Of a stretch of DNA of 64,000 bases, positions 1-15,440 are shown piece by piece. The notes beneath the pieces were generated by a model. It was not told where the DNA came from and did no database searches. It saw nothing but the letters and a program-made list of their open reading frames with translations. How positions within the stretch are numbered: the first letter of the stretch is position 1; every line of letters starts with the position of its first letter. Both the position numbers and the translations under genes were made by a program. This DNA is from Escherichia coli (GTDB lineage: Bacteria; Pseudomonadota; Gammaproteobacteria; Enterobacterales; Enterobacteriaceae). The stretch lies in assembly GCF_011045215.1 (NCBI RefSeq), contig NZ_CP049201.1. The stretch is one strand, 5' to 3'.

Positions 1-2
1 GA

Positions 3-719
3 GTGCTATTTGATAGCGCCAGAATGACATTAAGTCGACAAGAGAAAATAGTCAGGCTCTCCGAGTCAGAGTGCCATTTACTGCTGGCTTTTTGGCTTGG
101 ATTGTATAAAAAAGAAGAGATAATCAATTATGTCTGGAAAAATCGCAGCGGATGCGTTTCTGAATCGAGCTATTACAAACTTATCAATCAACTGCGAAAT
201 AACTTCAATCGGGTGGGGCTTCACGCATCAGATATTGTTACACATCCCCGGGTGGGAATATCGTTATCGATAACGCTGACTTCCGCTGATGAAATGTGCG
301 ACCTTCAGCAACAAAACGATGATGGGGCGCAGAAAATAAAATTCCGTGCCCTTTTGTCGCACCGGTTTATGGTTAAATGTAAAAACATGCGAGTACTTTG
401 TTGCACCAGCGGTGTGGTATTGCTGATAGGTATTATCCTCATTTTTAGTTTTCCCAGCGATACAACATGGAATAAATCTGATAAGGAGTTCACCTCGCTT
501 GGCGAGTTTGATGGTTATATTTTCTTTAAAATGAAGACGGATAAATTGACATTCAAGCAAGTCATCGCCGCATATACATCGATGACATTAAAACCTGACC
601 CGCAAAATGGTCATTATCTTTATTACATCAGGGAGCCTGATATCAATCTTTTATTTCAGTGTTTAAATCCGATTGAAAACGTGGTGCCAAAATGTTTAAC
701 CATAAAAGAACAGTACTGA
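3..719 (+). CDS. ToxR/CadC-like membrane-anchored transcriptional regulator (MarT/YqeI-like); 5' end probably cut by window edge
   Basis: N-terminal OmpR/PhoB-type winged-helix pattern (LLLAF...VW...SYYKLINQLR), single TM helix (VVLLIGIILIFSF), C-terminal periplasmic part with Cys pair; paralog of 1397-2137. Confidence 0.6.
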   Translation: MLFDSARMTLSRQEKIVRLSESECHLLLAFWLGLYKKEEIINYVWKNRSGCVSESSYYKLINQLRNNFNRVGLHASDIVTHPRVGISLSITLTSADEMCDLQQQNDDGAQKIKFRALLSHRFMVKCKNMRVLCCTSGVVLLIGIILIFSFPSDTTWNKSDKEFTSLGEFDGYIFFKMKTDKLTFKQVIAAYTSMTLKPDPQNGHYLYYIREPDINLLFQCLNPIENVVPKCLTIKEQY

Positions 720-1198
720 TTACGATGACGGTCATTGCGCTGGTGCTGATCGTGATATTTGGCAGAAACGGGTGGAGTGTTCAGCGAAATGTTATGAATG
801 TGGATAATTTTATTTGTACATCTAAATCAATAGTTTATATTGAACCTATGAAGATGAAACTGCGTGGTACGTTTGTGCTGGATCTTGAGTCAGACCGAAT
901 CGCCATTCATTATGAAGTTGAACAGGCGGATCATAAGGAAAAACTTTTTTTCCAGGATGTTCATATCAGTAAATTACTCCGAACAGGTATCAGAACGTTC
1001 ACATTTAAAGTCAGCTCAGTAAATAAATTTTCTGCTGATTCAACCGGAGATATGTTTTCCTGGTTACGTCTCCTTCAACCCGGTACGGTGAATGAGTTGA
1101 ATATTGTCCAGATCGGTCAAAATGCATATCTGTATTCGTTGAACAGGCATTTATATAATATTTGTACGACAAGCACCAACGCGGTGAATACGCACTAA
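692..1198 (+). CDS. small membrane protein, ToxS/FidL-like partner of the upstream regulator
   Basis: Overlaps upstream gene by 28 nt; N-terminal TM helix; paralog of 2110-2598 (shared C-terminal YLYSLNRHLYNICT motif). Confidence 0.5.
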   Translation: MFNHKRTVLITMTVIALVLIVIFGRNGWSVQRNVMNVDNFICTSKSIVYIEPMKMKLRGTFVLDLESDRIAIHYEVEQADHKEKLFFQDVHISKLLRTGIRTFTFKVSSVNKFSADSTGDMFSWLRLLQPGTVNELNIVQIGQNAYLYSLNRHLYNICTTSTNAVNTH

Positions 1199-1396
1199 TA
1201 GCTGTGTAATGGCCGGTCTATATGGGCATTGTGGCGGGTGTTGATAACGGAAGGGACTATTACATGTCCAATTTCGTCTGGAGCTGGCCTGTGTTAATAT
1301 GAACGCTGAAGGTTCCGTAAGGCTCTTAACTCAGTGCCTGGCAAGGCTGTACAACGGCAGAATCGGATACTCAATGAATAAATTGCAGAAGAAACC

Positions 1397-2137
1397 ATGA
1401 GCGAGCAAAAGTATCTTATCGACAATCGCGTGATATTTGATTCTGAGCGTATGTCATTGACTCACTCAGACAAAACGGTGAGCATTTCAGAATCCGAAAC
1501 GAATTTGCTGCTTGCTTTCTATAAGGGGTTATTCAAAAAGGATGATTTAATCGGCTGGGTCTGGGGGCGTAAGGGAGTCGTAGTTTCTGATGCCAGCTAT
1601 TATAAGCTCATCAATCAGTTACGTAATACTTTCGACAAAATAGGTCTACCGCCCTCATCTGTGGTGACGCGGCCCAAAGTCGGCGTTGAGCTGGTTTTAT
1701 CCATCACGCTCATTAAGCCTGCGACTCCCCGACAACCTGCTGCTGAACCGGTAGAACACTCAGCCGAATCCTTCAGCGAAACCCCGACAATACATGAACA
1801 CAATAAAACCGCTGTAGCAGGCCAGAGAGACTGGCTTTTTCTGGTATTGGCCGCGCTGTTGATGATCGCAGGATTTGGCGCCAGTCTGTGGGAGAGCCAT
1901 CCCTACTTTTCAGTGCCCGTTACCCATGACGGTTACTATTTTTATAAAGTAAGTAACGATAAAACGTCCTTCGAGGATGTGGCTGCGGCCTATGCAGAAT
2001 TGACAATTCCGGTGATTAAGCAGAATGGACGTCATATTTACTATATCAGAGTGCCGGATACCCATATTTTCGTCCAGTGCCTCAACCCACTCACCGTAGC
2101 GGAGCCAAAATGTATTACCCTAAAAGAACGTTATTAA
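1397..2137 (+). CDS. ToxR/CadC-like membrane-anchored transcriptional regulator (MarT/YqeI-like)
   Basis: Same architecture as 3-719: winged-helix N-terminus, TM helix (LFLVLAALLMIAGFGA), periplasmic C-terminus ending KCITLKERY. Confidence 0.65.
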   Translation: MSEQKYLIDNRVIFDSERMSLTHSDKTVSISESETNLLLAFYKGLFKKDDLIGWVWGRKGVVVSDASYYKLINQLRNTFDKIGLPPSSVVTRPKVGVELVLSITLIKPATPRQPAAEPVEHSAESFSETPTIHEHNKTAVAGQRDWLFLVLAALLMIAGFGASLWESHPYFSVPVTHDGYYFYKVSNDKTSFEDVAAAYAELTIPVIKQNGRHIYYIRVPDTHIFVQCLNPLTVAEPKCITLKERY

Positions 2138-2598
2138 GAATATTCACCGTGTTCTTTATTCTCGTCTCCGTGATGTTATGGGTACAGGTAATAAAGAAGC
2201 ACGCGGTCAGTCACCCCTCCGCGGGCAATTTTTTCTGTGCCACCAAAACGATAAGCAACATACAGGCGAAGGGGATAACCGTTGCGGGGGATATTGTCAT
2301 CGACTTCAAAACGCAACGTATTACGTTACAGCATGATGTGAAACAGCATAATAATGCGCATAGCCTGTTATATCGGGATGTTTACATGAAAAATCTGCGG
2401 CGCGTCACTGACGATCTTTTTACGTTTGAGATTGATTCTGTAAAGATATTTCCTGATGACAATGTCGGGAATTTTTTCTCCTATTTTCGCCTGCTCCATC
2501 CGGGGGGCCGCAACGAATTGCGAATTCAACGCATTGGCGAGAAAACCTATCTTTTTTCGCTTAATCGTCAGATTTATAACGTCTGTACAGCAAGTTGA
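2110..2598 (+). CDS. small membrane protein, ToxS/FidL-like partner
   Basis: Start chosen at MYYPKRTLL to match paralog; 28-nt overlap with upstream gene, N-terminal TM helix. Confidence 0.5.
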   Translation: MYYPKRTLLRIFTVFFILVSVMLWVQVIKKHAVSHPSAGNFFCATKTISNIQAKGITVAGDIVIDFKTQRITLQHDVKQHNNAHSLLYRDVYMKNLRRVTDDLFTFEIDSVKIFPDDNVGNFFSYFRLLHPGGRNELRIQRIGEKTYLFSLNRQIYNVCTAS

Positions 2599-2878
2599 AC
2601 TGCACAGGAATGCCCCGAGAGATTCTCTGAGGCCGTATGATAAGAGAGCGGTAAGCGGTAAGGTAACTGAAAGCTCATTACTTATTTAAATACATGGGTT
2701 TATATCAATCGTTCTGATTCTGTTCAACAGTGACAGAGTGAGATTATGATTTTTGTAAGATCTTCTTCCAGACTTTATCTGCCCTGATTAGCTATATTTT
2801 CGCCGCTGTAAACGGACATCAGAATACGTTTAAGTAGTCGTAATTAATGCTTTTTTCAATAAGATAAAGAGGGAGTAT

Positions 2879-3424
2879 TTGTCCATGTCTACGCGACTTC
2901 GTGGCGCTGCAATAATTTGTTTTTGTCTGCTAGCCTCATCTCAGAGTATGGCTAGTGGCACACATACGGTATCAATGGGGTATGCTCAAACACATCTGAG
3001 CGCATTAAAAAGCTCGAACAGCAAAGATCTTCATGGCTTTAATATAAAATATCGCTACGAGTTTGACGAACGCTGGGGCTTTATTGGTGCGTTAACGGCG
3101 ACTCGCCACGAAGTTGAGCATTATAGCTGGCAATCAGCAAAATTAAAAAAAGAGGGTACCGATACCATTGATTATAGTTCGGTAATGTTTGGCCCAACTT
3201 ATCGCTTTAATGATTACATCAGCCTGTATGGCAATGCAGGTATGGCGAGAATGAAAATGAAAAATACTCACTCAAACGAATCAACGGATGATTCGTTTGC
3301 ATACGGGGCCGGGGTAATATTTAACCCGTTAACCAACCTATCGCTTGATCTTTCCTGGGAAGCGTCAAAATTCTATTCTGTCGATGCCAATACGTTTGGC
3401 GTAAGCGTTGGCTATCGCTTTTAA
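2879..3424 (+). CDS. Ail/Lom/PagC/OmpX-family outer membrane beta-barrel protein
   Basis: Signal peptide, alternating beta-strand pattern, C-terminal GVSVGYRF ending in aromatic residue; RBS-like GGAG upstream. Confidence 0.75.
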   Translation: MSMSTRLRGAAIICFCLLASSQSMASGTHTVSMGYAQTHLSALKSSNSKDLHGFNIKYRYEFDERWGFIGALTATRHEVEHYSWQSAKLKKEGTDTIDYSSVMFGPTYRFNDYISLYGNAGMARMKMKNTHSNESTDDSFAYGAGVIFNPLTNLSLDLSWEASKFYSVDANTFGVSVGYRF

Positions 3425-3485
3425 AAATTGTACTCCCAGGGAGTGGGGATAAGTAAAATCATATTAAAGAAATTAAGGTTTATCC

Positions 3486-3842
3486 ATGAAATATATATTA
3501 CCAGCTCTTTTTACGGTGTTTTTAACCGCCTGTAGCGCTAACTCATTACATTCGGGGGCGGAACGGGTTCGTGTGACTCATAACGAGCCTGGAAAAGAGT
3601 GTTCGTGGTTAGGCGACATCACTGGCAGCCAGGGCAACTTTTTTACCGGAGGTTGGACCTCGAACAGTAACCTCGAAACAGGCGCGCGGAATGATATGAA
3701 AAATCAGGCCTGGAAAATGGGTGGAAATGTTGTTGTGCTGCTAACGCAACGCGCAGGGCAAACAGGCAGTTCGTACAATGGCAGTGGTTCAAGTCAGCAA
3801 ACTAACGTGACGCTAAGCGGATCGGTCTACCGTTGCCCATAG
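3486..3842 (+). CDS. small lipoprotein
   Basis: Lipobox LTAC after signal peptide; 118 aa; Gly/Ser-rich periplasmic body. Confidence 0.55.
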   Translation: MKYILPALFTVFLTACSANSLHSGAERVRVTHNEPGKECSWLGDITGSQGNFFTGGWTSNSNLETGARNDMKNQAWKMGGNVVVLLTQRAGQTGSSYNGSGSSQQTNVTLSGSVYRCP

Positions 3843-4018
3843 TCTACTATATTTCATTGATGAACAGAGAGCAGATATCAACATTGACGATTGCGGTCTG
3901 CTCTGATTCATAAATGTCATAAAGGAATGATATTTCATTTTTTTGAAGGTTATTATGATAATTTCTTTTATGCCGGAAAATATATCTTATATTACTTGTG
4001 GGTATGTTGTTGTAAGGT

Positions 4019-4594
4019 ATGGATATACATTTTAAAGCACAATCTCCTGAGGCAGTAACGCTCGCCGTGTGGCCAGATAATAATCCTCTGTTCACTGACT
4101 CTCTTGCCCATTTGATCACCGAAATAAACGTAATAAATCGCGTAGAAGATTTTCTTTTCGTCAATTTTTGCATCGATAACTTTATATACTTTATTCATGA
4201 TGAGTGGCTTGAAAAGTTGAACAAGTCAGGCCTGAGGGGGGTGCTGGTTATTGACCGTTTTATGCATTCGCTGGCGAATTATTGGCGTGAAAAACAACAG
4301 GATATTATCTTGTTATCGGTTGGCGATCGGGACCTGACGTCATTTGTATCGGCCCTGAATAGCCTGTCTTATGGACAAAGCAGGGTGCTAGAAGATGTCA
4401 TGCCGATAACAGAAAAAGAAATTTTTGTGTTACGTAAACGCCTCTCCGGTATGTCCGTAAGAAATATCGCACTCACCCTTAATTGCTCGGTTAAAAGTAT
4501 TTATTATTGCCAGTATTCTTTATTAAAAAAATTGAGGCGTTCGTCACGAATAGGCGAGATTTATATCCATCACTCTCACGTGCATGAGACTTAG
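4019..4594 (+). CDS. LuxR/GerE-type HTH transcriptional regulator
   Basis: C-terminal LuxR-type HTH (ITEKEIFVLRKRLSGMSVRNIALTLNCSVKSIYYCQYSLLKKL); AT-rich gene. Confidence 0.55.
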   Translation: MDIHFKAQSPEAVTLAVWPDNNPLFTDSLAHLITEINVINRVEDFLFVNFCIDNFIYFIHDEWLEKLNKSGLRGVLVIDRFMHSLANYWREKQQDIILLSVGDRDLTSFVSALNSLSYGQSRVLEDVMPITEKEIFVLRKRLSGMSVRNIALTLNCSVKSIYYCQYSLLKKLRRSSRIGEIYIHHSHVHET

Positions 4595-4798
4595 TCGTTA
4601 GCCTGTTTTTTCTGGCGGAATGACGGCATAACCCGGAAGGGATATGCCGCCTGCTTCAGCCTATCACGCCATCAACGCAAAAACTCCCCAGCCAAAATAC
4701 TCCCGGCTGTAGGTAACATTACGCATCGGCGCCGCGCTTAACTCTGCCCGAACCTCAAGCGCGAAACCTGATCCTACCCACGTAATATGGACACAGGC

Positions 4799-7211: not shown

Positions 7212-9611
7212 ATGCCCTCAGAAGGATTACGTTTCACGCTGTCGGTGGACGGTATCGTGGAGATGGCGACGGCGGTGGTGAGCTTCCGTCTGTACCAGCA
7301 CCACTGCACGCCGTTCATCCTGGATGTGGATATCGCCAGCGGGCTGTCTGACCTGACGGCGGAGGATTTTCTGGAGAAGAGCGCGGTGCTGACGGTCTGG
7401 CAGGGTGATATCCCGCAGCGTTACGTCAGCGGTATCGTGACGGAGGTGCAACTGGGGGAGAACAACGACTGGCAGATGCGTTATTCCCTGAGCATCAGCC
7501 CGCCGCTGTGGCGGGCAGGGTTACGGCAGAACTTCCGTATCTTCCAGCAGCAGGACATCCAGACGATATCAGCACAGCTTCTGAGAGAGAACGGAGTGAC
7601 GGCATGGATGCCGCTGTTTTATGAAGACCATCCGGCGCGGGAGTTCTGTGTGCAGTACGGGGAAAGCGACCTGGCGTTTCTGGCGCGGCTGTGGGCGGAG
7701 GAGGGGATTTTCTTCTTTGAGCGGTTTGCGGCGGACAGTCCGGAGCAGAAGCTGACGCTGTGCGACGATGTGGCGGGGCTGTCACAGGCGGGAGAGCTTC
7801 CGTTTAACCCGGACACATCGGCAGGAGCGGAGACGGAGTGTCTCAGTACGTTCCGTTATGAGGCGCATGTCCGCCCGTCGTCGGTGCAGAGTCAGGATTA
7901 CACGTTTAAGGTGCCGGACTGGCCGGGGATGTATGAGCAGCAGGGTGAGAACCTGAACGGACAGCTGGCGCAGTACGAGATATTTGATTATCCGGGAAGG
8001 TTCAAGGATGAGCAGCACGGCAAGGATTTCACGCTGTACCAGATGGACAGCCTGCGCAGTGATGCGGAAAAGGCCACAGGGCAGAGTAATTCACCGAAGC
8101 TGTGGCCGGGAACGCGGTTTACGCTGACGGGGCATCCGCAGAAGATGCTGAACCGTGAATGGCAGGTGGTACAGAGCATACTGTCAGGAAGCCAGCCGCA
8201 GGCGCTGCACGGCAGCCAGGGGAGGGGAACCACGCTGGGAAATCAGTTAGAGGTGATACCGGCAGACCGGACGTGGCGTCCACGGCTGCAAAGCAAACCG
8301 AAGGTGGACGGGCCGCAGAGTGCCATTGTGACCGGGCCGAAGGGTGAGGAGATATTCTGCGACGAACATGGCCGGGTACGGGTGAAGTTCCACTGGGACC
8401 GTTATCACGGGATGACGGAGGCGAGTTCATGCTGGGTGCGGGTATCGCAGGCGTGGGCGGGGCCGGGGTTCGGTAACCTGGCGATACCGCGGGTGGGCCA
8501 GGAGGTGATTGTTGACTTCCTGAACGGCGACCCGGACCAGCCCATCGTCACGGGACGGACCTACCATGAAGATAACCGCTCCCCGGGCGACCTGCCGGGA
8601 ACGAAGACGCAGATGACGATACGGTCGAAGACCTATAAAGAAAGCGGATTTAACGAGTTGCGGTTTGAAGACGCCACCAGTAATGAGCAGGTGTATATCC
8701 ACGCGCAGAAGAACATGGATACGGAGGTGCTCAACGACCGGACAACGGATGTGAAGCATGACCATACGGAGACCATTGGTAACGACCAGAAGATAACGGT
8801 GGTGAAGGGGCAGACGGTTGAGGTCGGGACCAGAAAAGAAGGAGGCCACGACCAGAGTATCACGGTGGCGAACGACCGGAGCATAACGGTACGTAACGAC
8901 CAGACGCTGAAGGTGACAAATGACCGGACGGTGAGCGTGAGTCACGATGACGGTCTGTACGTCAGAAATGACCGTAGGGTGACGGTGAAAGGGAAGCAGG
9001 AGCATAAGACGACGGGTAACCACATCAGCCTGGTGGAGGGGAAGCACAGCCTGGAGGTGAAGGGGGACCTGGCGGAGAAGGTGAGTGGCGCGCTGGGGAT
9101 AGAAGTGGACGGGGATATCGTGCTGGAGAGCAGCAGCCGGATAAGCCTGAAGGTGGGTGGCTCGTTTATCGTCATTCAGCCGGGCGGAGTGGATATTGCC
9201 GGGCCGAAGATAAACCTGAACGGTGGGGGCAGTGCGGGGACACCGGTGGGGACGATGCAGCCGGCGGTGCTGGAGGCTCCGGAGGATGAGAGCAGTGATG
9301 ATGGCAGTGATGACTCCGGAGAGGATAGTGGCAATCCCGCAGGGAGTGACGGAGGAGGTGATGGCGGTGACGATGAAGATGATCCTGAAAAATATACCCT
9401 CCAGTTCCATTTTACGGACGATGACGGGATACCGTATTCAGAGACGCAGTATATTGCCTTTTTTGAGGATGGCACACAGACGCGTGGTGAAACAGACAGA
9501 GAGGGATATACAGAAATATTTTATACAGATACAGCACAGGAAATTAAAGTCCAATTGTTATTTTCGGATGCTTTTTATATTGAGCCGGAGGGGCATTATG
9601 GCAGGGAATAA
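7212..9611 (+). CDS. vgrG: T6SS spike protein VgrG with acidic linker and C-terminal extension
   Basis: 799 aa; gp27/gp5-like core, beta-helix repeats (NDRT.. repeats), acidic stretch EDESSDDGSDDSGEDSG, then about 70-aa C-terminal tail. Confidence 0.9.
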   Translation: MPSEGLRFTLSVDGIVEMATAVVSFRLYQHHCTPFILDVDIASGLSDLTAEDFLEKSAVLTVWQGDIPQRYVSGIVTEVQLGENNDWQMRYSLSISPPLWRAGLRQNFRIFQQQDIQTISAQLLRENGVTAWMPLFYEDHPAREFCVQYGESDLAFLARLWAEEGIFFFERFAADSPEQKLTLCDDVAGLSQAGELPFNPDTSAGAETECLSTFRYEAHVRPSSVQSQDYTFKVPDWPGMYEQQGENLNGQLAQYEIFDYPGRFKDEQHGKDFTLYQMDSLRSDAEKATGQSNSPKLWPGTRFTLTGHPQKMLNREWQVVQSILSGSQPQALHGSQGRGTTLGNQLEVIPADRTWRPRLQSKPKVDGPQSAIVTGPKGEEIFCDEHGRVRVKFHWDRYHGMTEASSCWVRVSQAWAGPGFGNLAIPRVGQEVIVDFLNGDPDQPIVTGRTYHEDNRSPGDLPGTKTQMTIRSKTYKESGFNELRFEDATSNEQVYIHAQKNMDTEVLNDRTTDVKHDHTETIGNDQKITVVKGQTVEVGTRKEGGHDQSITVANDRSITVRNDQTLKVTNDRTVSVSHDDGLYVRNDRRVTVKGKQEHKTTGNHISLVEGKHSLEVKGDLAEKVSGALGIEVDGDIVLESSSRISLKVGGSFIVIQPGGVDIAGPKINLNGGGSAGTPVGTMQPAVLEAPEDESSDDGSDDSGEDSGNPAGSDGGGDGGDDEDDPEKYTLQFHFTDDDGIPYSETQYIAFFEDGTQTRGETDREGYTEIFYTDTAQEIKVQLLFSDAFYIEPEGHYGRE

Positions 9612-10401
9612 TAATACTAGTGGGACTTCACAACCCGAGTCGCAAGTATGTGTAGTACCGCAAAAAATTACAAATAAATTTAAAATAATGATGAGTAAGG
9701 CTTGTAAAGCACAGAAAATGGTTTTATTGAAAAGAGCAGATGATATTATGTCATGGGAGGGGGAACAACAACGAGATTTTATTAAAGTTTTTGGCCTTAA
9801 AGGCGAGGACATTATAAAAATCAGAAAGGTTGGGGAAGATACTGGGAAACGAATGCAAGCGAGACTATTCATAATGGATGGCATCAGACAAATAATGACG
9901 ATTGCAAATGGTTTGACGATCGAAAGCTATAAAGATTATACGAACTGCAATGAATTTGCTGCTTTTATTAGTCCACATCTTGATCCTCCTTACATTGTAA
10001 ATATCGGAGCGCATTTTGAATACAGACATGGTATAAAACAGTCGGTTACAGGTAGAGACTCTCATGTAAGTACACTTTGCCATGAAATGTCCCATATATT
10101 TTGGTATTGGGGTGACAATCAAAAAGGTGGTATGTGGACTCAGGATTATACGGGTATTAATAAGTTCGCAACAAGTAATAAGGATGAAGTTAGCTATGAG
10201 AAACATGTTTCAGTGGCTAATGATCTGGTTACATTGCGTAAAGATCAGTTATTTGAGAATGCATATAATGTTGAAAGATATTTTTATATAAAATTAAATG
10301 ATGAAGATATTGAAGCTCAAGATGAGAATATGTTAGCAAAAAAAGTAGAGGATAAAATAAAAGAGATAGAAAAATGTTTTGATGAGTTGATGGGGAAATA
10401 A
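9598..10401 (+). CDS. putative T6SS effector, HExxH zinc-metallopeptidase-like
   Basis: Start overlaps vgrG stop by 14 nt; HEMSH motif (LCHEMSHIFWYW); AT-rich versus GC-rich vgrG; the longer listed ORF 9223-10401 is an in-frame read-through of vgrG sequence. Confidence 0.6.
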   Translation: MAGNNNTSGTSQPESQVCVVPQKITNKFKIMMSKACKAQKMVLLKRADDIMSWEGEQQRDFIKVFGLKGEDIIKIRKVGEDTGKRMQARLFIMDGIRQIMTIANGLTIESYKDYTNCNEFAAFISPHLDPPYIVNIGAHFEYRHGIKQSVTGRDSHVSTLCHEMSHIFWYWGDNQKGGMWTQDYTGINKFATSNKDEVSYEKHVSVANDLVTLRKDQLFENAYNVERYFYIKLNDEDIEAQDENMLAKKVEDKIKEIEKCFDELMGK

Positions 10402-10402
10402 G

Positions 10403-11242
10403 ATGAAGAGGTTGGCTTTCTATAATCTAAATTATGTTGTACTGATGGTTTTTTTTCTTTGTTTTTTGCCATTATCTATTGCAATTGCAATAGATAATGA
10501 GAATCTTTTTGTAAAAAAATACAGATTCGGTTTTGAACGAAGAAATGACAATGGGAAACCAATTATTTATCTTAGCCATAATTTAGCGCCAGAGGAAAAT
10601 ATAAGTAATGAATTAACAAATGATGTTGTTGTTAAATTGGTGGTTAAGCCACATGCTGAAAATATTTTAGCTACTATAACTTTTTATAACAGTAGTACTA
10701 AATCGTATTTTCTCCCCAGAATATATTATCCAAAGAACTTCCAAAAAGGAAATGGAGATGTATTTGATGCTTTGTGTGATGACGAATTCTTGATTACATC
10801 AGGAAATATTAGCTTAGACTATCTAGGAGGCTTTTGTCCCTTTGAGCTTGATTTGAATTTGAGCCGATGGGTGGAAATTACGGCAGGTAAAAAAATATCT
10901 TTTGATGTAAAATTGAATGATATGCATTCATTTCTCCCCAGTTTAAATAATTATCATATAAAAACATTAAACTACAAACTTGTTAGGAGAAAATGGTTTG
11001 TATTAAAATCAATTAATGAAACATTCCTCTCTATTTTGATGAAAAGATACTCATGTAATGAATATGATTTTAGAGCTATATCATTTAGTGGAGAGGGATG
11101 TGATAATTATGAATTTGATAAAAATACGTTTTTTTTTGTTAATCAAATATTAGATAAAGATGATGAGCAACATTCTGTTCATATTAGGTCTAATGAATTT
11201 TCCATCAATATCGATGGAAGCTTGGTAAAGCAACCTTATTGA
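10403..11242 (+). CDS. putative cognate immunity protein (exported or membrane-anchored)
   Basis: Starts 2 nt after effector stop; N-terminal hydrophobic signal/anchor (VVLMVFFLCFLPLSIAIA); AT-rich. Confidence 0.5.
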   Translation: MKRLAFYNLNYVVLMVFFLCFLPLSIAIAIDNENLFVKKYRFGFERRNDNGKPIIYLSHNLAPEENISNELTNDVVVKLVVKPHAENILATITFYNSSTKSYFLPRIYYPKNFQKGNGDVFDALCDDEFLITSGNISLDYLGGFCPFELDLNLSRWVEITAGKKISFDVKLNDMHSFLPSLNNYHIKTLNYKLVRRKWFVLKSINETFLSILMKRYSCNEYDFRAISFSGEGCDNYEFDKNTFFFVNQILDKDDEQHSVHIRSNEFSINIDGSLVKQPY

Positions 11243-11299
11243 TTAAAATGTATCGCAGGTTTTATTTTCTGTAATGCTGGTGCATGTGCGTAAATATTT

Positions 11300-11730
11300 C
11301 TTAAGAGCCGGAAACACCTCTTCCGCCTTTATCGACGATAAACCTACCGCCAGAACCGGTGATGCCATTGACTGCGGTGGCGTGGTTAAAGGTGGAGGGC
11401 GATGTGGTGCTGGAGAGCAGCAGCCGGATAAGCCTGAAGGTGGGCGGCTCGTTTGTGGTCATCCATTCAGGGGGCGTGGACATCGTCGGGCCGAAAATCA
11501 ATCTCAATAGCGGCGGTAGTCCGGGAACGCCGGTGCCGACGCTGCAACCGGCGGTTCTGAAAGCGCTGGCAGATGATAAAAGTTTAGCGGCTGAGCAAAA
11601 TGATAGTAATGCATCGTCCGATCAGAATGATAACAACGATGAGGGTGAGGAAGCGCCAGAAAAATCGGTGTGTAAGGAGTGCCTGAAAAGGGCGCAAGAA
11701 GCCGCCGCCGTTTTTGCGCCTCGTGGATAA
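11300..11730 (+). pseudogene. PAAR 3' fragment fused to vgrG 3' fragment (deletion scar of a second PAAR-vgrG copy)
   Basis: 11310-11398 is near-identical to PAAR 3' end (7090-7180); 11398-11560 near-identical to vgrG 9120-9280; a distinct C-terminal tail follows. Confidence 0.7.
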
Positions 11731-11736
11731 GGGAGA

Positions 11737-12506
11737 ATGACAATGATAACAGTATCGCCACACGCTACCGATCAAGACAAATATATTATCTGGCTGAAGC
11801 AAGCTGAATCATTCTGTTCTGCCGCTGGTTTGGATTACATAGATGTGCTTGTTGACCAGGCTGGAACCGACCAACCTTTGCAAAATGATATGCTTCATCT
11901 GTCGCCAGCCATTCACTGGTATGCCCTGTTTGAAGGAACGCCTGAAGCTGAGACGATGGAGTATTCCCCTGTAGTGTTACGCCTGTACTTTGCGCTCAGT
12001 AGCCATCGCAAATTTCTGGCACAACTGATGGCGTCATTTGCTGATACGCCGCGTCTTACTTTGTTGATATCCCCTCTTACATTCGACCTGCTGGGCGGCA
12101 TCTTCAGGTATTGTCACAGGTTCAGTGGGAAGAACAGACCGGATTGCTGCGTTACTATGATAATCGGGTGTTCCCTTTACTGTTCACACATGTTTTGACT
12201 AACGAGCAGCAGGCGACATTTACTGATATTGCGTTGTTCTGGAGCTGGTTAGACCGTGATGGTGAGATTAACTGGAAATCAGGAAGTTTTTCACCAGAAC
12301 GCAGGCTTACTGACAACCCGGAGATGAATCGGGTGGATGATGTACAGGTGGGATTGATGGGCTGTATCTGCGACGCTGAAGTCCTGATGAAGGAGAAAGC
12401 AGTCAGTGAACTCAGTCAGGAAAGCTATTTTGCCCACTGTCTTGATATTGCTTTCAGGGCCAATGACGCGAAATATTTCGGAGCTTTGCGGGACTTCGAA
12501 GGATAA
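11737..12506 (+). pseudogene. hypothetical T6SS accessory protein (adaptor-like position), apparently frameshifted
   Basis: Two overlapping ORFs (11737-12198, 12111-12506) in different frames, directly after the vgrG tail fragment. Confidence 0.35.
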
Positions 12507-12819
12507 TATTGTGGTGATGTACGGGGAGATTTATCTGTTTAAAAGTCCGTAGCTGTTAATATCAAGAGATAATCGTGAAATAAACGGAAAATCAAGCTCG
12601 ACATGTAATGGTAGTATCCATCATGTTGCATTTGTGTTCGATCGTAATGTCAGTTCACTTGGCTGCAATATATTTTGCGTAATATCATCAATGCTCTGTC
12701 GATATTCCAATGTGTGACAATCGAAAGATATGCATTTTATTTGCTTCTATGTCAAAACTTTATTGTCGTAGAAACAATACCCATCAATTAAAATCTCTCA
12801 AAGTAAAAGAACCAGCAAC

Positions 12820-13362
12820 ATGTCCAGCAAAATAAGAAATGGAATGAATATAACAAAAGTAGTTAAAGGCTGTCTGGTATTAATTTTGATGGTGATTTCT
12901 GGTTGCTCAGCAGATAATTACGACGATTATACTGCAGGTGATCTCCGGGCAATAAATCATATTAAAGGTATCAGTATTAATTGGTTCACCGTAAATGGTT
13001 ATCGGGTCCATGGTTTGGGCGGTGGATATTGCTGCATAATGTTACCAAAGAAGTGGCATTCTGGATTAAAAGCCCGGATCGAGTGGGAAGTAGACCCGAC
13101 CCCCCTTGAACCTATTGCAATGAAAAAAGAAGGTTTTGGCTATGAAGAAGATGCTTATGCTAAACATGCTGCAAATTATCAAAAATATAAAGTAATTGTT
13201 GACATCCCGGAATACGGCGCTGAACGTTGTGGCCTGACCGTTCATTTTCTGCCGTGTAATCAGATTAAAGTGACAACCGTCTGCGAGGGCTATGGCACAC
13301 CGAATTATCCTATCAAAGAACCCCGCGAGATGAAGGAACCTGCAACATGTCCAGCAAAATAA
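12820..13362 (+). CDS. lipoprotein, candidate Tle1 immunity (Tli-like)
   Basis: Lipobox ISGC after signal peptide; Cys-rich periplasmic domain; 3' end overlaps tle1 start. Confidence 0.5.
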   Translation: MSSKIRNGMNITKVVKGCLVLILMVISGCSADNYDDYTAGDLRAINHIKGISINWFTVNGYRVHGLGGGYCCIMLPKKWHSGLKARIEWEVDPTPLEPIAMKKEGFGYEEDAYAKHAANYQKYKVIVDIPEYGAERCGLTVHFLPCNQIKVTTVCEGYGTPNYPIKEPREMKEPATCPAK

Positions 13363-15440
13363 GTGGTCTGGCTTTTCCGTGTTATGCCCCCCCGGTGTTC
13401 CCTGAAGATGGGCGATTAATATTATCTGAAGCGCAGGTAAACGCGAACTACCTAAAACAAATCAATAAAACAGAAGAGCACAAAACCAACTGTAGTAAAC
13501 AGGCTGGATTTAGAATTGGCTTTACGTGTAATCAAAGTATGCATATTAGTCTGTTTTTTGATGGTACAAATAATAATGAATATAATGACACTCCTGGACA
13601 CCCAACCAATATTGCCAAACTGTTTCATACGACCTATCAGAACGCAGAAGAACAGGGATATTTTAACTACTATATACCGGGTGTAGGCACACCATTTCCC
13701 AAGATAGGTGAAATGGATTACAGCAACAGCGGGCTGGAGTTCGCTACTGGTGGTGAAGATCGAATTAATTGGGCATTATTACGCCTCGTGGATGCCCTGA
13801 GCTATTCCATTGACCCTTCCCATAAGCGACTGGATGATAATGTGGCAAAAGAGCACATTCCTCTTATGCGCGCTCCCTGGCCTATGACTGGTGAAGTGAA
13901 TCGTCGCAATGTGATTAACCCCTACCTGGAAAAATTACAGGGACTGTTAGAGCAAGCCAGTCCGCGCCTGCTAAACGTAAAGCTGTTTATCTACGGATTT
14001 TCCCGTGGCGCAGCGGAAGCACGAACTTTTGTTAACTGGTTGACTCAGTTAGCTTGCCCGCAGGAGCAACAGGTGATGCTGGCCGGGTTAGCTGTCAGTA
14101 TTGAGTTTTTGGGGCTGCTGGATACCGTAGCTTCTGTGGGGGCGGCGCATGTTTTACCGGGCGCTGCCGGTCATATGGGATGGGCCGATAGTACTCAGCA
14201 ACTCCCTGATGAGAGGCAGTTTCCCGGCCTGATTAAATGCTGCCGCCACTTCGTTGCCGCGCATGAGCAGCGGCTGTGCTTTCCGCTGGATTCAATCCGT
14301 CGTCCAGACGGAAATTATCCTTTAAATGCAGAGGAAATTATCTATCCGGGGATGCACTCTGATGTCGGTGGTGGCTATCCCGTTCGCGATCAGGGGAAGT
14401 CCTGTGGTGACTCAGGCGAAATTCTTTCTCAGATAGCACTGCATGATATGTATCTTGCTGCATTTGATTCAGGAGCACCACTTGCTGTTTATTCTAAATT
14501 TGTTACTCCATTAATAAAAGGTGTGTCGCCTCTGCGAATTATGAGTCCTTCTAGCGTAAAGGAATTTACGATTGCTAATTCATTAACAAAACGCTTCAAC
14601 ATCTGGCGACAAACGCTGCTGAACACCACCTTGCAGGGTACAGAAGAAATGATTGATACGAGGGAAGGTTATCACTCCTATCAACTTGCCCAGGTTCTTG
14701 AAAGCGCAATTAGCGATCAGATCGGCTGGATCACCGCCTGGCGTATCGGTCGCTATGCGAATAACAGCCTTCTTGTGCAACCTTTTTATATTAAGGCGCC
14801 ACAGCTGGATAAAGATGGACTTGATAAAGAGGCTAAAGCGCGTAAAGAACAAATGGAAAATATTGAAAAAGAGCGGGCGAACAAGCAGAAAGGGAATGGC
14901 ACACTTGATGAAAGTAATCAGGGCATTCCTATCCTTGACCCAACCAATGCTCAGTATCAGTTGCGAGAGGCAGCCCGAGAATTTCAGAGCGATTATAAAG
15001 GATGGACGCGCGATATTAACGGCAGCGTCATGGAGAAAGCCATTCAGATTCTTGTGGATGTCATTCCTAAATATCCGGTGTATCTGATTAATGGCGATGA
15101 TGAAGCAAAAGAATATCAGCAAATTAAGGCTATGGGAGACGGACTCTATCCACAATTTTTTATTGATTCACTGGGAACGGGAACGCGTACTCAGCCATGC
15201 GCTGAATTACTGGCCCTCTATGATGACCAGGTTCACGACTCCCGCGCCTGGTTTATGCAAAGTTCGCTGGGTGGACGTGAACCCTGGGGCGGTTATTTTC
15301 GCTACCGCATGATTTACTTCGGTGATGAGGCTAATAAAGAGCTGAAGCTAATCTCTGCAGATGGCAAAGTTGTTGGCGATCAGCCCACATCCAACCGGGT
15401 CATTTATTGGATGGAATCGAAAACGGTGAGCCGAGGTTAA
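13347..15440 (+). CDS. tle1: T6SS phospholipase effector, Tle1 family (DUF2235 alpha/beta hydrolase)
   Basis: 697 aa; GxSxG lipase motif in YGFSRGA; located in the vgrG island. Confidence 0.75.
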   Translation: MSSKISGLAFPCYAPPVFPEDGRLILSEAQVNANYLKQINKTEEHKTNCSKQAGFRIGFTCNQSMHISLFFDGTNNNEYNDTPGHPTNIAKLFHTTYQNAEEQGYFNYYIPGVGTPFPKIGEMDYSNSGLEFATGGEDRINWALLRLVDALSYSIDPSHKRLDDNVAKEHIPLMRAPWPMTGEVNRRNVINPYLEKLQGLLEQASPRLLNVKLFIYGFSRGAAEARTFVNWLTQLACPQEQQVMLAGLAVSIEFLGLLDTVASVGAAHVLPGAAGHMGWADSTQQLPDERQFPGLIKCCRHFVAAHEQRLCFPLDSIRRPDGNYPLNAEEIIYPGMHSDVGGGYPVRDQGKSCGDSGEILSQIALHDMYLAAFDSGAPLAVYSKFVTPLIKGVSPLRIMSPSSVKEFTIANSLTKRFNIWRQTLLNTTLQGTEEMIDTREGYHSYQLAQVLESAISDQIGWITAWRIGRYANNSLLVQPFYIKAPQLDKDGLDKEAKARKEQMENIEKERANKQKGNGTLDESNQGIPILDPTNAQYQLREAAREFQSDYKGWTRDINGSVMEKAIQILVDVIPKYPVYLINGDDEAKEYQQIKAMGDGLYPQFFIDSLGTGTRTQPCAELLALYDDQVHDSRAWFMQSSLGGREPWGGYFRYRMIYFGDEANKELKLISADGKVVGDQPTSNRVIYWMESKTVSRG

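Follow-up and report, generated by a model that had tools for sequence, protein, structure and literature searches.

The window, i.e. the whole 64,000-nucleotide (nt) stretch of Escherichia coli DNA that was analysed (contig NZ_CP049201.1), opens with two consecutive gene pairs (positions 1 to 2598), each made of a gene for a membrane-bound regulator and an overlapping gene for a small membrane protein. It is very likely that these are two paralogous co-component transmembrane cassettes, belonging to the superfamily of ToxR/ToxS and VtrA/VtrC, and that they act on the flanking surface genes by the mechanism proposed below. Both pairs have the architecture, the folds and the gene overlap of such cassettes, are under purifying selection and stand in conserved synteny. 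Such 'co-component signal transduction systems' were defined by Kinch, Cong, Jaishankar and Orth (PNAS 2022, PMC9214523), with VtrA/VtrC, ToxR/ToxS, TcpP/TcpH, PsaE/PsaF, MarT/FidL, YqeI/YqeJ, GrvA/FidL and SF3508/7 as members; two neighbouring Salmonella cassettes, STM0341/STM0342 and STM0344/STM0345, are also included. Through such ToxR/ToxS-like systems, several enteric pathogens convert host signals such as bile into virulence-gene expression, and the ligands and targets are mostly undescribed outside Vibrio and Yersinia.

Layout of the two gene pairs

The four genes are the following:

3-719, + strand: regulator 1 (assigned to the STM0341 group), in frame, 5' end cut by the window edge; 249 amino acids (aa) at full length
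692-1198, + strand: small partner 1 (assigned to the STM0342 group), 168 aa, overlapping regulator 1 by 28 nt
1397-2137, + strand: regulator 2 (assigned to the STM0344 group), 246 aa, architecture as in regulator 1
2110-2598, + strand: small partner 2 (assigned to the STM0345 group), 162 aa from its ATG, overlapping regulator 2 by 28 nt

The start of regulator 1 was located 31 nt upstream of the window in the near-identical record of E. coli PapRG-06-5, where the Prokaryotic Genome Annotation Pipeline (PGAP) labels the long genes 'winged helix-turn-helix domain-containing protein' and the short ones 'hypothetical protein'. The overlap is exactly 28 nt in both pairs (692-719 and 2110-2137), and in both the small gene starts with an ATG that overlaps the regulator's codon for its last conserved Cys (ccaaaATGTt). 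This AA[ATG]T arrangement is a trait of the co-component family: as depicted in Figure 5E of PMC9214523, the partner ATG overlaps the codon of the Cys that forms the C-terminal disulfide of the regulator. Small partner 2 has a GGAG Shine-Dalgarno sequence 5 nt 5' of its ATG. The GTG at 2077, given as its start by the open reading frame (ORF) finder, was rejected: it is not the start retained by PGAP, and the N-terminus conserved among the orthologues does not agree with it.

Pairwise alignment gave 38% identity between the two regulators (E-value 4e-60) and 36% between the two small proteins (E-value 7e-37). A single strongly hydrophobic stretch of 19 residues occurs in every one of the four proteins, at about residues 142-164 for the regulators and 6-25 for the small proteins. 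A preliminary description of this DNA, made from the letters alone, had reported two consecutive pairs of shared architecture with a 28-nt overlap, paralogous yet diverged, with one transmembrane helix per regulator and a small membrane protein downstream; all of this is borne out in every detail.

The same description hinged on the small ORFs being coding, and they are indeed genuine genes under purifying selection. Their dN/dS (ratio of nonsynonymous to synonymous substitution rates; Nei-Gojobori method) is 0.07-0.26 against orthologues at dS 0.4 to >1.5; it is 0.12-0.26 for the regulators, dS ranging from 0.3 to >1.5 across the genes. The small proteins are kept in at least six lineages, with 21 invariant columns across 16 sequences (two of them Cys), and fold prediction is confident. 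Orthologues were found in Citrobacter rodentium, C. sedlakii, Salmonella enterica, S. diarizonae, Klebsiella oxytoca, Proteus mirabilis and several metagenome contigs. Frameshifted or truncated small partners of the Proteus, Salmonella and Klebsiella types (P0035, P0036, P0037 and P0049) are frequent in public data, which suggests recurrent inactivation, as for the 'half-barrel' STM0342 of strain LT2; other Salmonella (L003 and L012) have a full-length partner 1.

The regulators have a ToxR-type winged helix

When scanned as single sequences with Pfam Trans_reg_C, none of the 18 family members was recognized at E <= 0.001 (best value 0.009; 0.09 for regulator 1), and no NCBIfam model matched the proteins. 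The Pfam failure is due to the divergence of the N-terminal winged helix. A profile built from the 18 regulators and compared with all Protein Data Bank sequences gave as first match the DNA-binding domain of Vibrio cholerae ToxR (7nmb, E-value 3.4e-7, residues 4-111). The ToxR entries, among them 8b4b and 8b4c at about 5e-6, span 3.4e-7 to 6e-6 and are followed by CadC at 0.14.

Pair 1 was modelled with AlphaFold2 (AF2) as a fusion of regulator 1 and small protein 1 joined by a Gly-Ser linker, with 16 paired rows in the alignment. The model shows an OmpR/PhoB-type winged helix (about residues 1-105) with four N-terminal strands, three helices and a wing, predicted with high confidence (predicted local distance difference test, pLDDT, about 90). 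It is followed by a disordered linker, a transmembrane helix (138-160) and a periplasmic beta2-alpha-beta3 domain of about 80 residues (pLDDT 80-89), with strands 174-180, 183-188, 216-222, 225-231 and 242-248 and helix 195-204. Foldseek, used on this model, placed the ToxR-DNA complexes 8b4b-e on top (template-modelling score 0.75-0.80, 23-26% identity); the DNA-binding domains of YycF and CadC came next, and VtrC for the barrel part. The OmpR-type winged helix announced in the preliminary description is therefore present, as found both by family profile and by structure. Of the domain search that it had called for, the family profile reaches ToxR, whereas the single-sequence Trans_reg_C scan gives nothing significant; taken alone, the single-sequence Pfam and NCBIfam scans would wrongly have led to the view that these proteins have no winged helix.

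Both regulator traits of the co-component family are thus found: a cytoplasmic ToxR/OmpR-type winged helix at the N-terminus (family profile, AF2 and Foldseek), and a single transmembrane segment followed by a beta2-alpha-beta3 domain. In this domain, the last hairpin has an invariant Cys at either end (Cys231 and Cys242), from which a disulfide between the last two strands is predicted. The divergence between the two regulators is unevenly spread, with 11% identity only in the linker and transmembrane segment versus 45% in the periplasmic domain. In all lineages the two paralogues have one and the same recognition-helix core, SYYKL(I/L)NQxR, and both sensors may therefore read the same sites.

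The small partners are lipocalin-like barrels

In the pair-1 model, small protein 1 consists of an N-terminal transmembrane anchor and an eight-stranded periplasmic barrel. Small partner 2 likewise combines a transmembrane anchor with a lipocalin-type barrel of the VtrC/ToxS kind, VtrC and ToxS being among its best structural matches. In both pairs, the gene downstream of and overlapping the regulator gene thus encodes the transmembrane-anchored, eight-stranded lipocalin-like barrel expected of a co-component partner. Two Cys (C43 and C159 in small protein 2) are invariant in 23 sequences. They belong to strands 42-51 and 155-161, the first and last of the barrel, as in the FidL/YqeJ/STM0345 disulfide group, and the YqeJ-like proteins have Cys at the same positions. 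The invariant Cys pairs of regulator and partner are placed where the family paper (PMC9214523) puts the disulfides.

As to the relation with FidL and YqeJ, no significant match to Pfam FidL_like (PF15941) or YqeJ_C was obtained: small protein 1 had no Pfam match, small protein 2 matched FidL_like only, at an E-value of 0.11, and BLASTP of the small proteins against K-12 YqeJ revealed no similarity. Profile-profile comparison (hhalign) linked the small-protein family to the YqeJ-like proteins over 112 columns (probability 96.4%, E-value 1.3e-9). A bridging sequence, P0054, was found with the A1 profile (E-value 1.3e-4), and one A3 member matches FidL_like at 8e-6. Since the links consist of profile-profile comparison and a bridging sequence, these sequence comparisons make the small partners relatives of FidL/YqeJ at the superfamily level, not members of the family.

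Orthology with STM0341/0342 and STM0344/0345

Neighbour-joining trees of the regulators and of the partners are congruent: each consists of two orthologue groups that contain every lineage. Pair 1 is therefore assigned to the STM0341/0342 group and pair 2 to the STM0344/0345 group, an assignment with which closest relatives, tree position and synteny all agree; regulator 2 and the Salmonella protein of 247 aa share 54% identity. Judging from these trees, the duplication is old: it predates the divergence of these Enterobacterales and is common to Citrobacter, Klebsiella and Proteus. Orthology with MarT/FidL or YqeI/YqeJ was considered and rejected, BLASTP giving nothing for YqeJ and, for the regulators against YqeI, E-values of 1e-4 to 6e-5 confined to the winged helix. 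The label 'ToxR/ToxS-like (MarT/FidL-like)' of the preliminary description is thus right as to the type of module, and its second half has to be replaced by orthology to STM0341/0342 and STM0344/0345.

The subfamily is small, narrow and fast-evolving. A profile search run exhaustively on 1.84 billion representative proteins returned 26 hits, many of them fragments or frameshifted; a word-indexed search for homologues of small protein 2 gave only three proteins, and a scan of genome contigs only five loci.

Genomic neighbourhood

Downstream of pair 2, the module comprises:

2885-3424, + strand: Ail/Lom/OmpX-family outer-membrane beta-barrel (STM0346 homologue), conserved neighbour
3486-3842, + strand: DUF4156 lipoprotein (STM0349 homologue), conserved neighbour (PMC9368917)
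4019-4594, + strand: EcpR/YqeH/STM0347-like regulator of the LuxR type, a neighbour conserved in the versions from Citrobacter, E. coli and Salmonella (PMC9368917)
4799-5970, - strand: transposase genes of the insertion sequence (IS) IS3, at the module end, dividing the module from an unrelated vgrG/Tle1 island

The numbering is that of the literature, in which the Ail/OmpX homologue bears the number STM0346, the LuxR-type regulator STM0347 and the lipoprotein STM0349. The Ail/Lom-type outer-membrane protein had already been noticed as a neighbour, and it is one across genera, as are the DUF4156 lipoprotein and the LuxR-type gene. Other genera have the genes in the order divergent adhesin operon, pair 1, CSS-motif EAL protein, pair 2, Ail/Lom and DUF4156 lipoprotein; in Citrobacter and Salmonella it ends with the EcpR/YqeH-like LuxR regulator. 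The CSS-motif EAL gene divides the cassettes in C. rodentium, Salmonella and Klebsiella, and the two pairs are directly adjacent in the window, as in Proteus. In PapRG-06-5, the orthologue of that gene, 60% identical to the C. rodentium copy, is found past the autotransporter (L001:5243-6790, minus strand). This autotransporter is the divergent adhesin: it is of the AIDA-I type (1403-1407 aa) in E. coli PapRG-06-5, C. sedlakii and contig L009, while a Stb-like chaperone-usher operon has this place in the other genera. The barrel of the PapRG-06-5 autotransporter, the sole copy scanned, resembles that of MisL.

The locus sits in a rare, Citrobacter-like island of E. coli. Among 5426 complete E. 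coli genomes, one, that of PapRG-06-5 (from baboon stool, the Gambia), matches positions 1-4700 of the window, and lowering the stringency adds none. The two sequences differ at 5 of 5990 positions, the window therefore coming from a sister strain of PapRG-06-5. Positions 1-4682 are collinear with C. sedlakii NBRC 105722 at 92.2% identity, a value that points to horizontal transfer of the block. Past the IS3, the window continues with a vgrG/Tle1 phospholipase/DUF4123/M35 peptidase island (about 7212-15440) common in E. coli, whereas PapRG-06-5 has a fimbrial operon past the same IS3; because of this difference, the strain of the window is taken to carry an IS3-associated rearrangement. The link once drawn between the regulators and type VI secretion cargo is thus incidental to the IS3 junction.

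Other cassettes were encountered outside the window. In PapRG-06-5, a third, more YqeI/YqeJ-like one (L001:25713-26896; 236 aa and 158 aa, 4-nt overlap) is IS-flanked and lies about 2 kb downstream of another chaperone-usher operon, with IS3/IS630 remnants between. In metagenome contig ERR10124956_14, a YqeI/YqeJ-like cassette (L008:10269-11610) is located about 1 kb downstream of pair 2, beyond a gene with an MrpH_C domain, and adjoins yet another fimbrial operon. Co-component cassettes seem to cluster with chaperone-usher adhesin operons. An Enterobacteriaceae locus (MGYG-HGUT-00110, L011) has pair 2 only, with Ail, DUF4156 and the LuxR-type gene; an apparent tRNA gene 3' end upstream of its regulator 2 suggests that an island integrated there.

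Candidate operators and promoters

A non-coding element of about 50 bp, TCTGAAAAGTGCTTACTG-CAAA-CTGAATAAATCTTACTTTTTTCTTACTT, lies beyond the window edge (L001:11715-11767), some 200-250 nt upstream of regulator 1. It contains three CTTAC(T) direct repeats with spacings of 21 and 11 bp. The block is kept in all eight aligned loci, from Proteus to E. coli, and is present with an autotransporter as well as with a fimbrial operon on the divergent side; its flanks are not conserved. Between E. coli and contig L009, 50 of the 50 bp of the core are identical, the proportion of synonymous differences (pS) in adjacent genes being about 0.3. In the window itself, two elements were retained:

1273-1300, + strand: conserved promoter-like element between the pairs (TTCGTC, 16 nt, TGT-TAATAT extended -10), read by eye
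2744-2798, + strand: conserved ail promoter region, with TGTAAGA at 2754-2760 and a -10-like TATATT at 2793-2798; candidate operator

In the ail promoter, TGTAAGA, which is the same hexamer in the opposite orientation, is invariant in 8 of 8 loci and stands 32 nt upstream of the conserved TATATT. A second copy of the TGTAAGA type is found 11 bp upstream in the ail promoters of Salmonella, Klebsiella and Proteus. Winged helices of the OmpR/ToxR type bind direct repeats at helical spacing. For this reason, the GTAAGA/TCTTAC repeats with 11-bp spacing upstream of regulator 1 and ail are proposed as candidate operators, a new lead drawn from sequence conservation. The exact CTTACT-N5-CTTACT string is not enriched over chance in whole loci, and what supports the repeats is their positional conservation only.

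The 1273-1300 block also occurs upstream of the CSS-motif EAL gene that divides the pairs in C. rodentium and L008. As a conserved extended -10-like element located between the pairs, it suggests that pair 2 may have its own promoter. A scan for consensus promoters and terminators was uninformative: it yielded fewer promoter-like sites than shuffled sequence and did not detect the 1273-1300 element.

Proposed mechanism and alternatives

Taken together with what is established for VtrA/VtrC and ToxR/ToxS (PMC9214523, PMC10624426 and PMC10140157), these features lead us to the following scheme. The partner would probably be translated by coupling to the regulator, via the gene overlap. The periplasmic domain of the regulator and the barrel of the partner, each predicted to be closed by a disulfide, would form an obligate heterodimer that stabilizes the regulator; the co-duplication of regulators and partners, with congruent trees, is indirect evidence for it. 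By analogy with the two Vibrio systems, the barrel would bind a hydrophobic host-derived ligand, e.g. a bile salt or a fatty acid, and ligand binding would bring about oligomerization and DNA binding at the membrane. From synteny and the conserved non-coding DNA, the putative targets are the flanking surface genes, namely the divergent adhesin, the downstream Ail/Lom porin and the DUF4156 lipoprotein, and they would be bound through the GTAAGA/TCTTAC direct repeats 11 bp apart. Both sensors probably share these operators, so that two different periplasmic signals would feed into one output.

Data from Salmonella fit a role in the control of surface and adhesion. Cells in which STM0341 is deleted form less biofilm, bind less calcofluor, and show 9-fold lower adherence and 4-fold lower invasion (PMC2805695), STM0341 is a direct target of SprB (PMC5013294), and deletion of STM0347 raises STM0349 most strongly (PMC9368917).

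A few points weigh against this interpretation. The literature cited assigns no direct targets to the STM0341-0345 orthologues, which Kinch et al. list only as candidate pairs. The Pfam and NCBIfam models do not significantly recognize the proteins. In the E. coli ail promoter, the upstream half-site 11 bp away is degenerate, leaving only one well preserved, and the GTAAGA repeats could instead bind another factor, for example the LuxR-type regulator nearby, SprB or H-NS.

The best placed of the alternatives, which we nevertheless regard as unlikely, concerns the input. The small proteins would bind no ligand and would be only stabilizers, or chaperones against proteolysis, as TcpH is for TcpP, the signal being the redox state of the periplasmic Cys or envelope stress. 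The invariant Cys pair in all four proteins is in keeping with it, and ToxS and TcpH protect ToxR and TcpP (PMC11323476); however, the same fold, as a closed or open barrel, binds bile salts in VtrC and ToxS (PMC10624426 and PMC10140157). This alternative departs from our preferred explanation solely in the nature of the input.

A somewhat more doubtful possibility is that the main targets of the cassettes are distant and global (flagellar phase, biofilm, SPI-1-like functions), the synteny reflecting co-transfer and not co-regulation. The breadth of the biofilm, adherence and invasion phenotypes of the STM0341 deletion (PMC2805695) could be read in this way, as could the changes in flagellin phase and HilA seen when the neighbouring STM0347 is deleted (PMC9368917). 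Yet the repeat element travels with regulator 1 across adhesin types, a related element is present in every ail promoter, and the characterized relatives MarT, PsaE and VtrA all activate adjacent genes (PMC9214523). Finally, it is improbable that a horizontally acquired, IS-ridden island carries the cassettes as silent or decaying cargo, without current function in this E. coli: the island is indeed found in just 1 of 5426 complete genomes with IS elements around, and broken partners are common (P0035, P0036 and P0049 in public data; the 'half barrel' STM0342 of LT2, PMC9214523), but none of the four ORFs is broken, dN/dS stays well below 1 even when the closest relatives are compared, C. sedlakii has a collinear block at 92% identity, and the upstream non-coding element is kept as well.

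Within the preferred scheme of ligand-sensing cassettes acting on their neighbours, a more specific idea is put forward tentatively. The two sensors might converge on one type of operator housed in a portable element of about 50 bp, next to which the adhesin has been swapped (Stb-like fimbriae versus an AIDA/MisL-type autotransporter), the operator being also present in every ail promoter. If so, the locus would be a portable two-input logic module that puts any plugged-in adhesin, together with Ail and DUF4156, under the control of two gut-derived ligands.

The kind of system described here is already published, the neighbouring Salmonella cassettes being included in Kinch et al., and what is known of the family is unchanged. 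The novelty is limited to the new host, the candidate operator, and an arrangement that is intact and compact and has its adhesin swapped. The interest of the locus is that it has the STM0341-0345 double cassette in intact, compact form, alongside a candidate operator and obvious candidate targets, and that it shows such cassettes to move between genera (92% identity between the E. coli block and that of Citrobacter sedlakii) and to be able to couple to different adhesins.

Comparison with known systems

The closest known system is formed by Salmonella STM0341/0342 and STM0344/0345, which have the same tandem order, ATG-over-Cys overlap and Cys pairs, and the same downstream genes for Ail (STM0346), the DUF4156 lipoprotein (STM0349) and the LuxR-type regulator (STM0347). 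The E. coli locus differs in that the pairs are directly adjacent, the CSS-motif EAL gene (STM0343 homologue) having moved past the adhesin gene, and in that the divergent adhesin is an autotransporter instead of a Stb-like fimbrial operon. Partner 1 is a full-length barrel here, whereas STM0342 of LT2 is reported as a half barrel (PMC9214523).

With Vibrio VtrA/VtrC and ToxR/ToxS, the pairs share the ToxR-like winged helix, the single transmembrane segment, the small periplasmic domain, and the downstream transmembrane-anchored partner with an eight-stranded lipocalin-like barrel. Identity to these systems is 4-10% for the partner and about 24% for the DNA-binding domain. Unlike VtrA and ToxR, the regulators lack the C-terminal helix of the periplasmic domain (PMC9214523), and their partners carry a predicted disulfide between N- and C-terminal strands that is typical of the FidL/YqeJ group.

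MarT/FidL of Salmonella pathogenicity island 3 (SPI-3), YqeI/YqeJ of E. coli type III secretion system 2 (ETT2) and GrvA/FidL belong to the same superfamily as the two pairs and are not their orthologues, the MarT/FidL sequences not having been compared directly. The arrangement recalls two of them nonetheless: like MarT with misL, the cassette adjoins an AIDA/MisL-type autotransporter, and, as for YqeI/YqeJ, a YqeH-like LuxR gene (27% identity) is a neighbour of the pairs.

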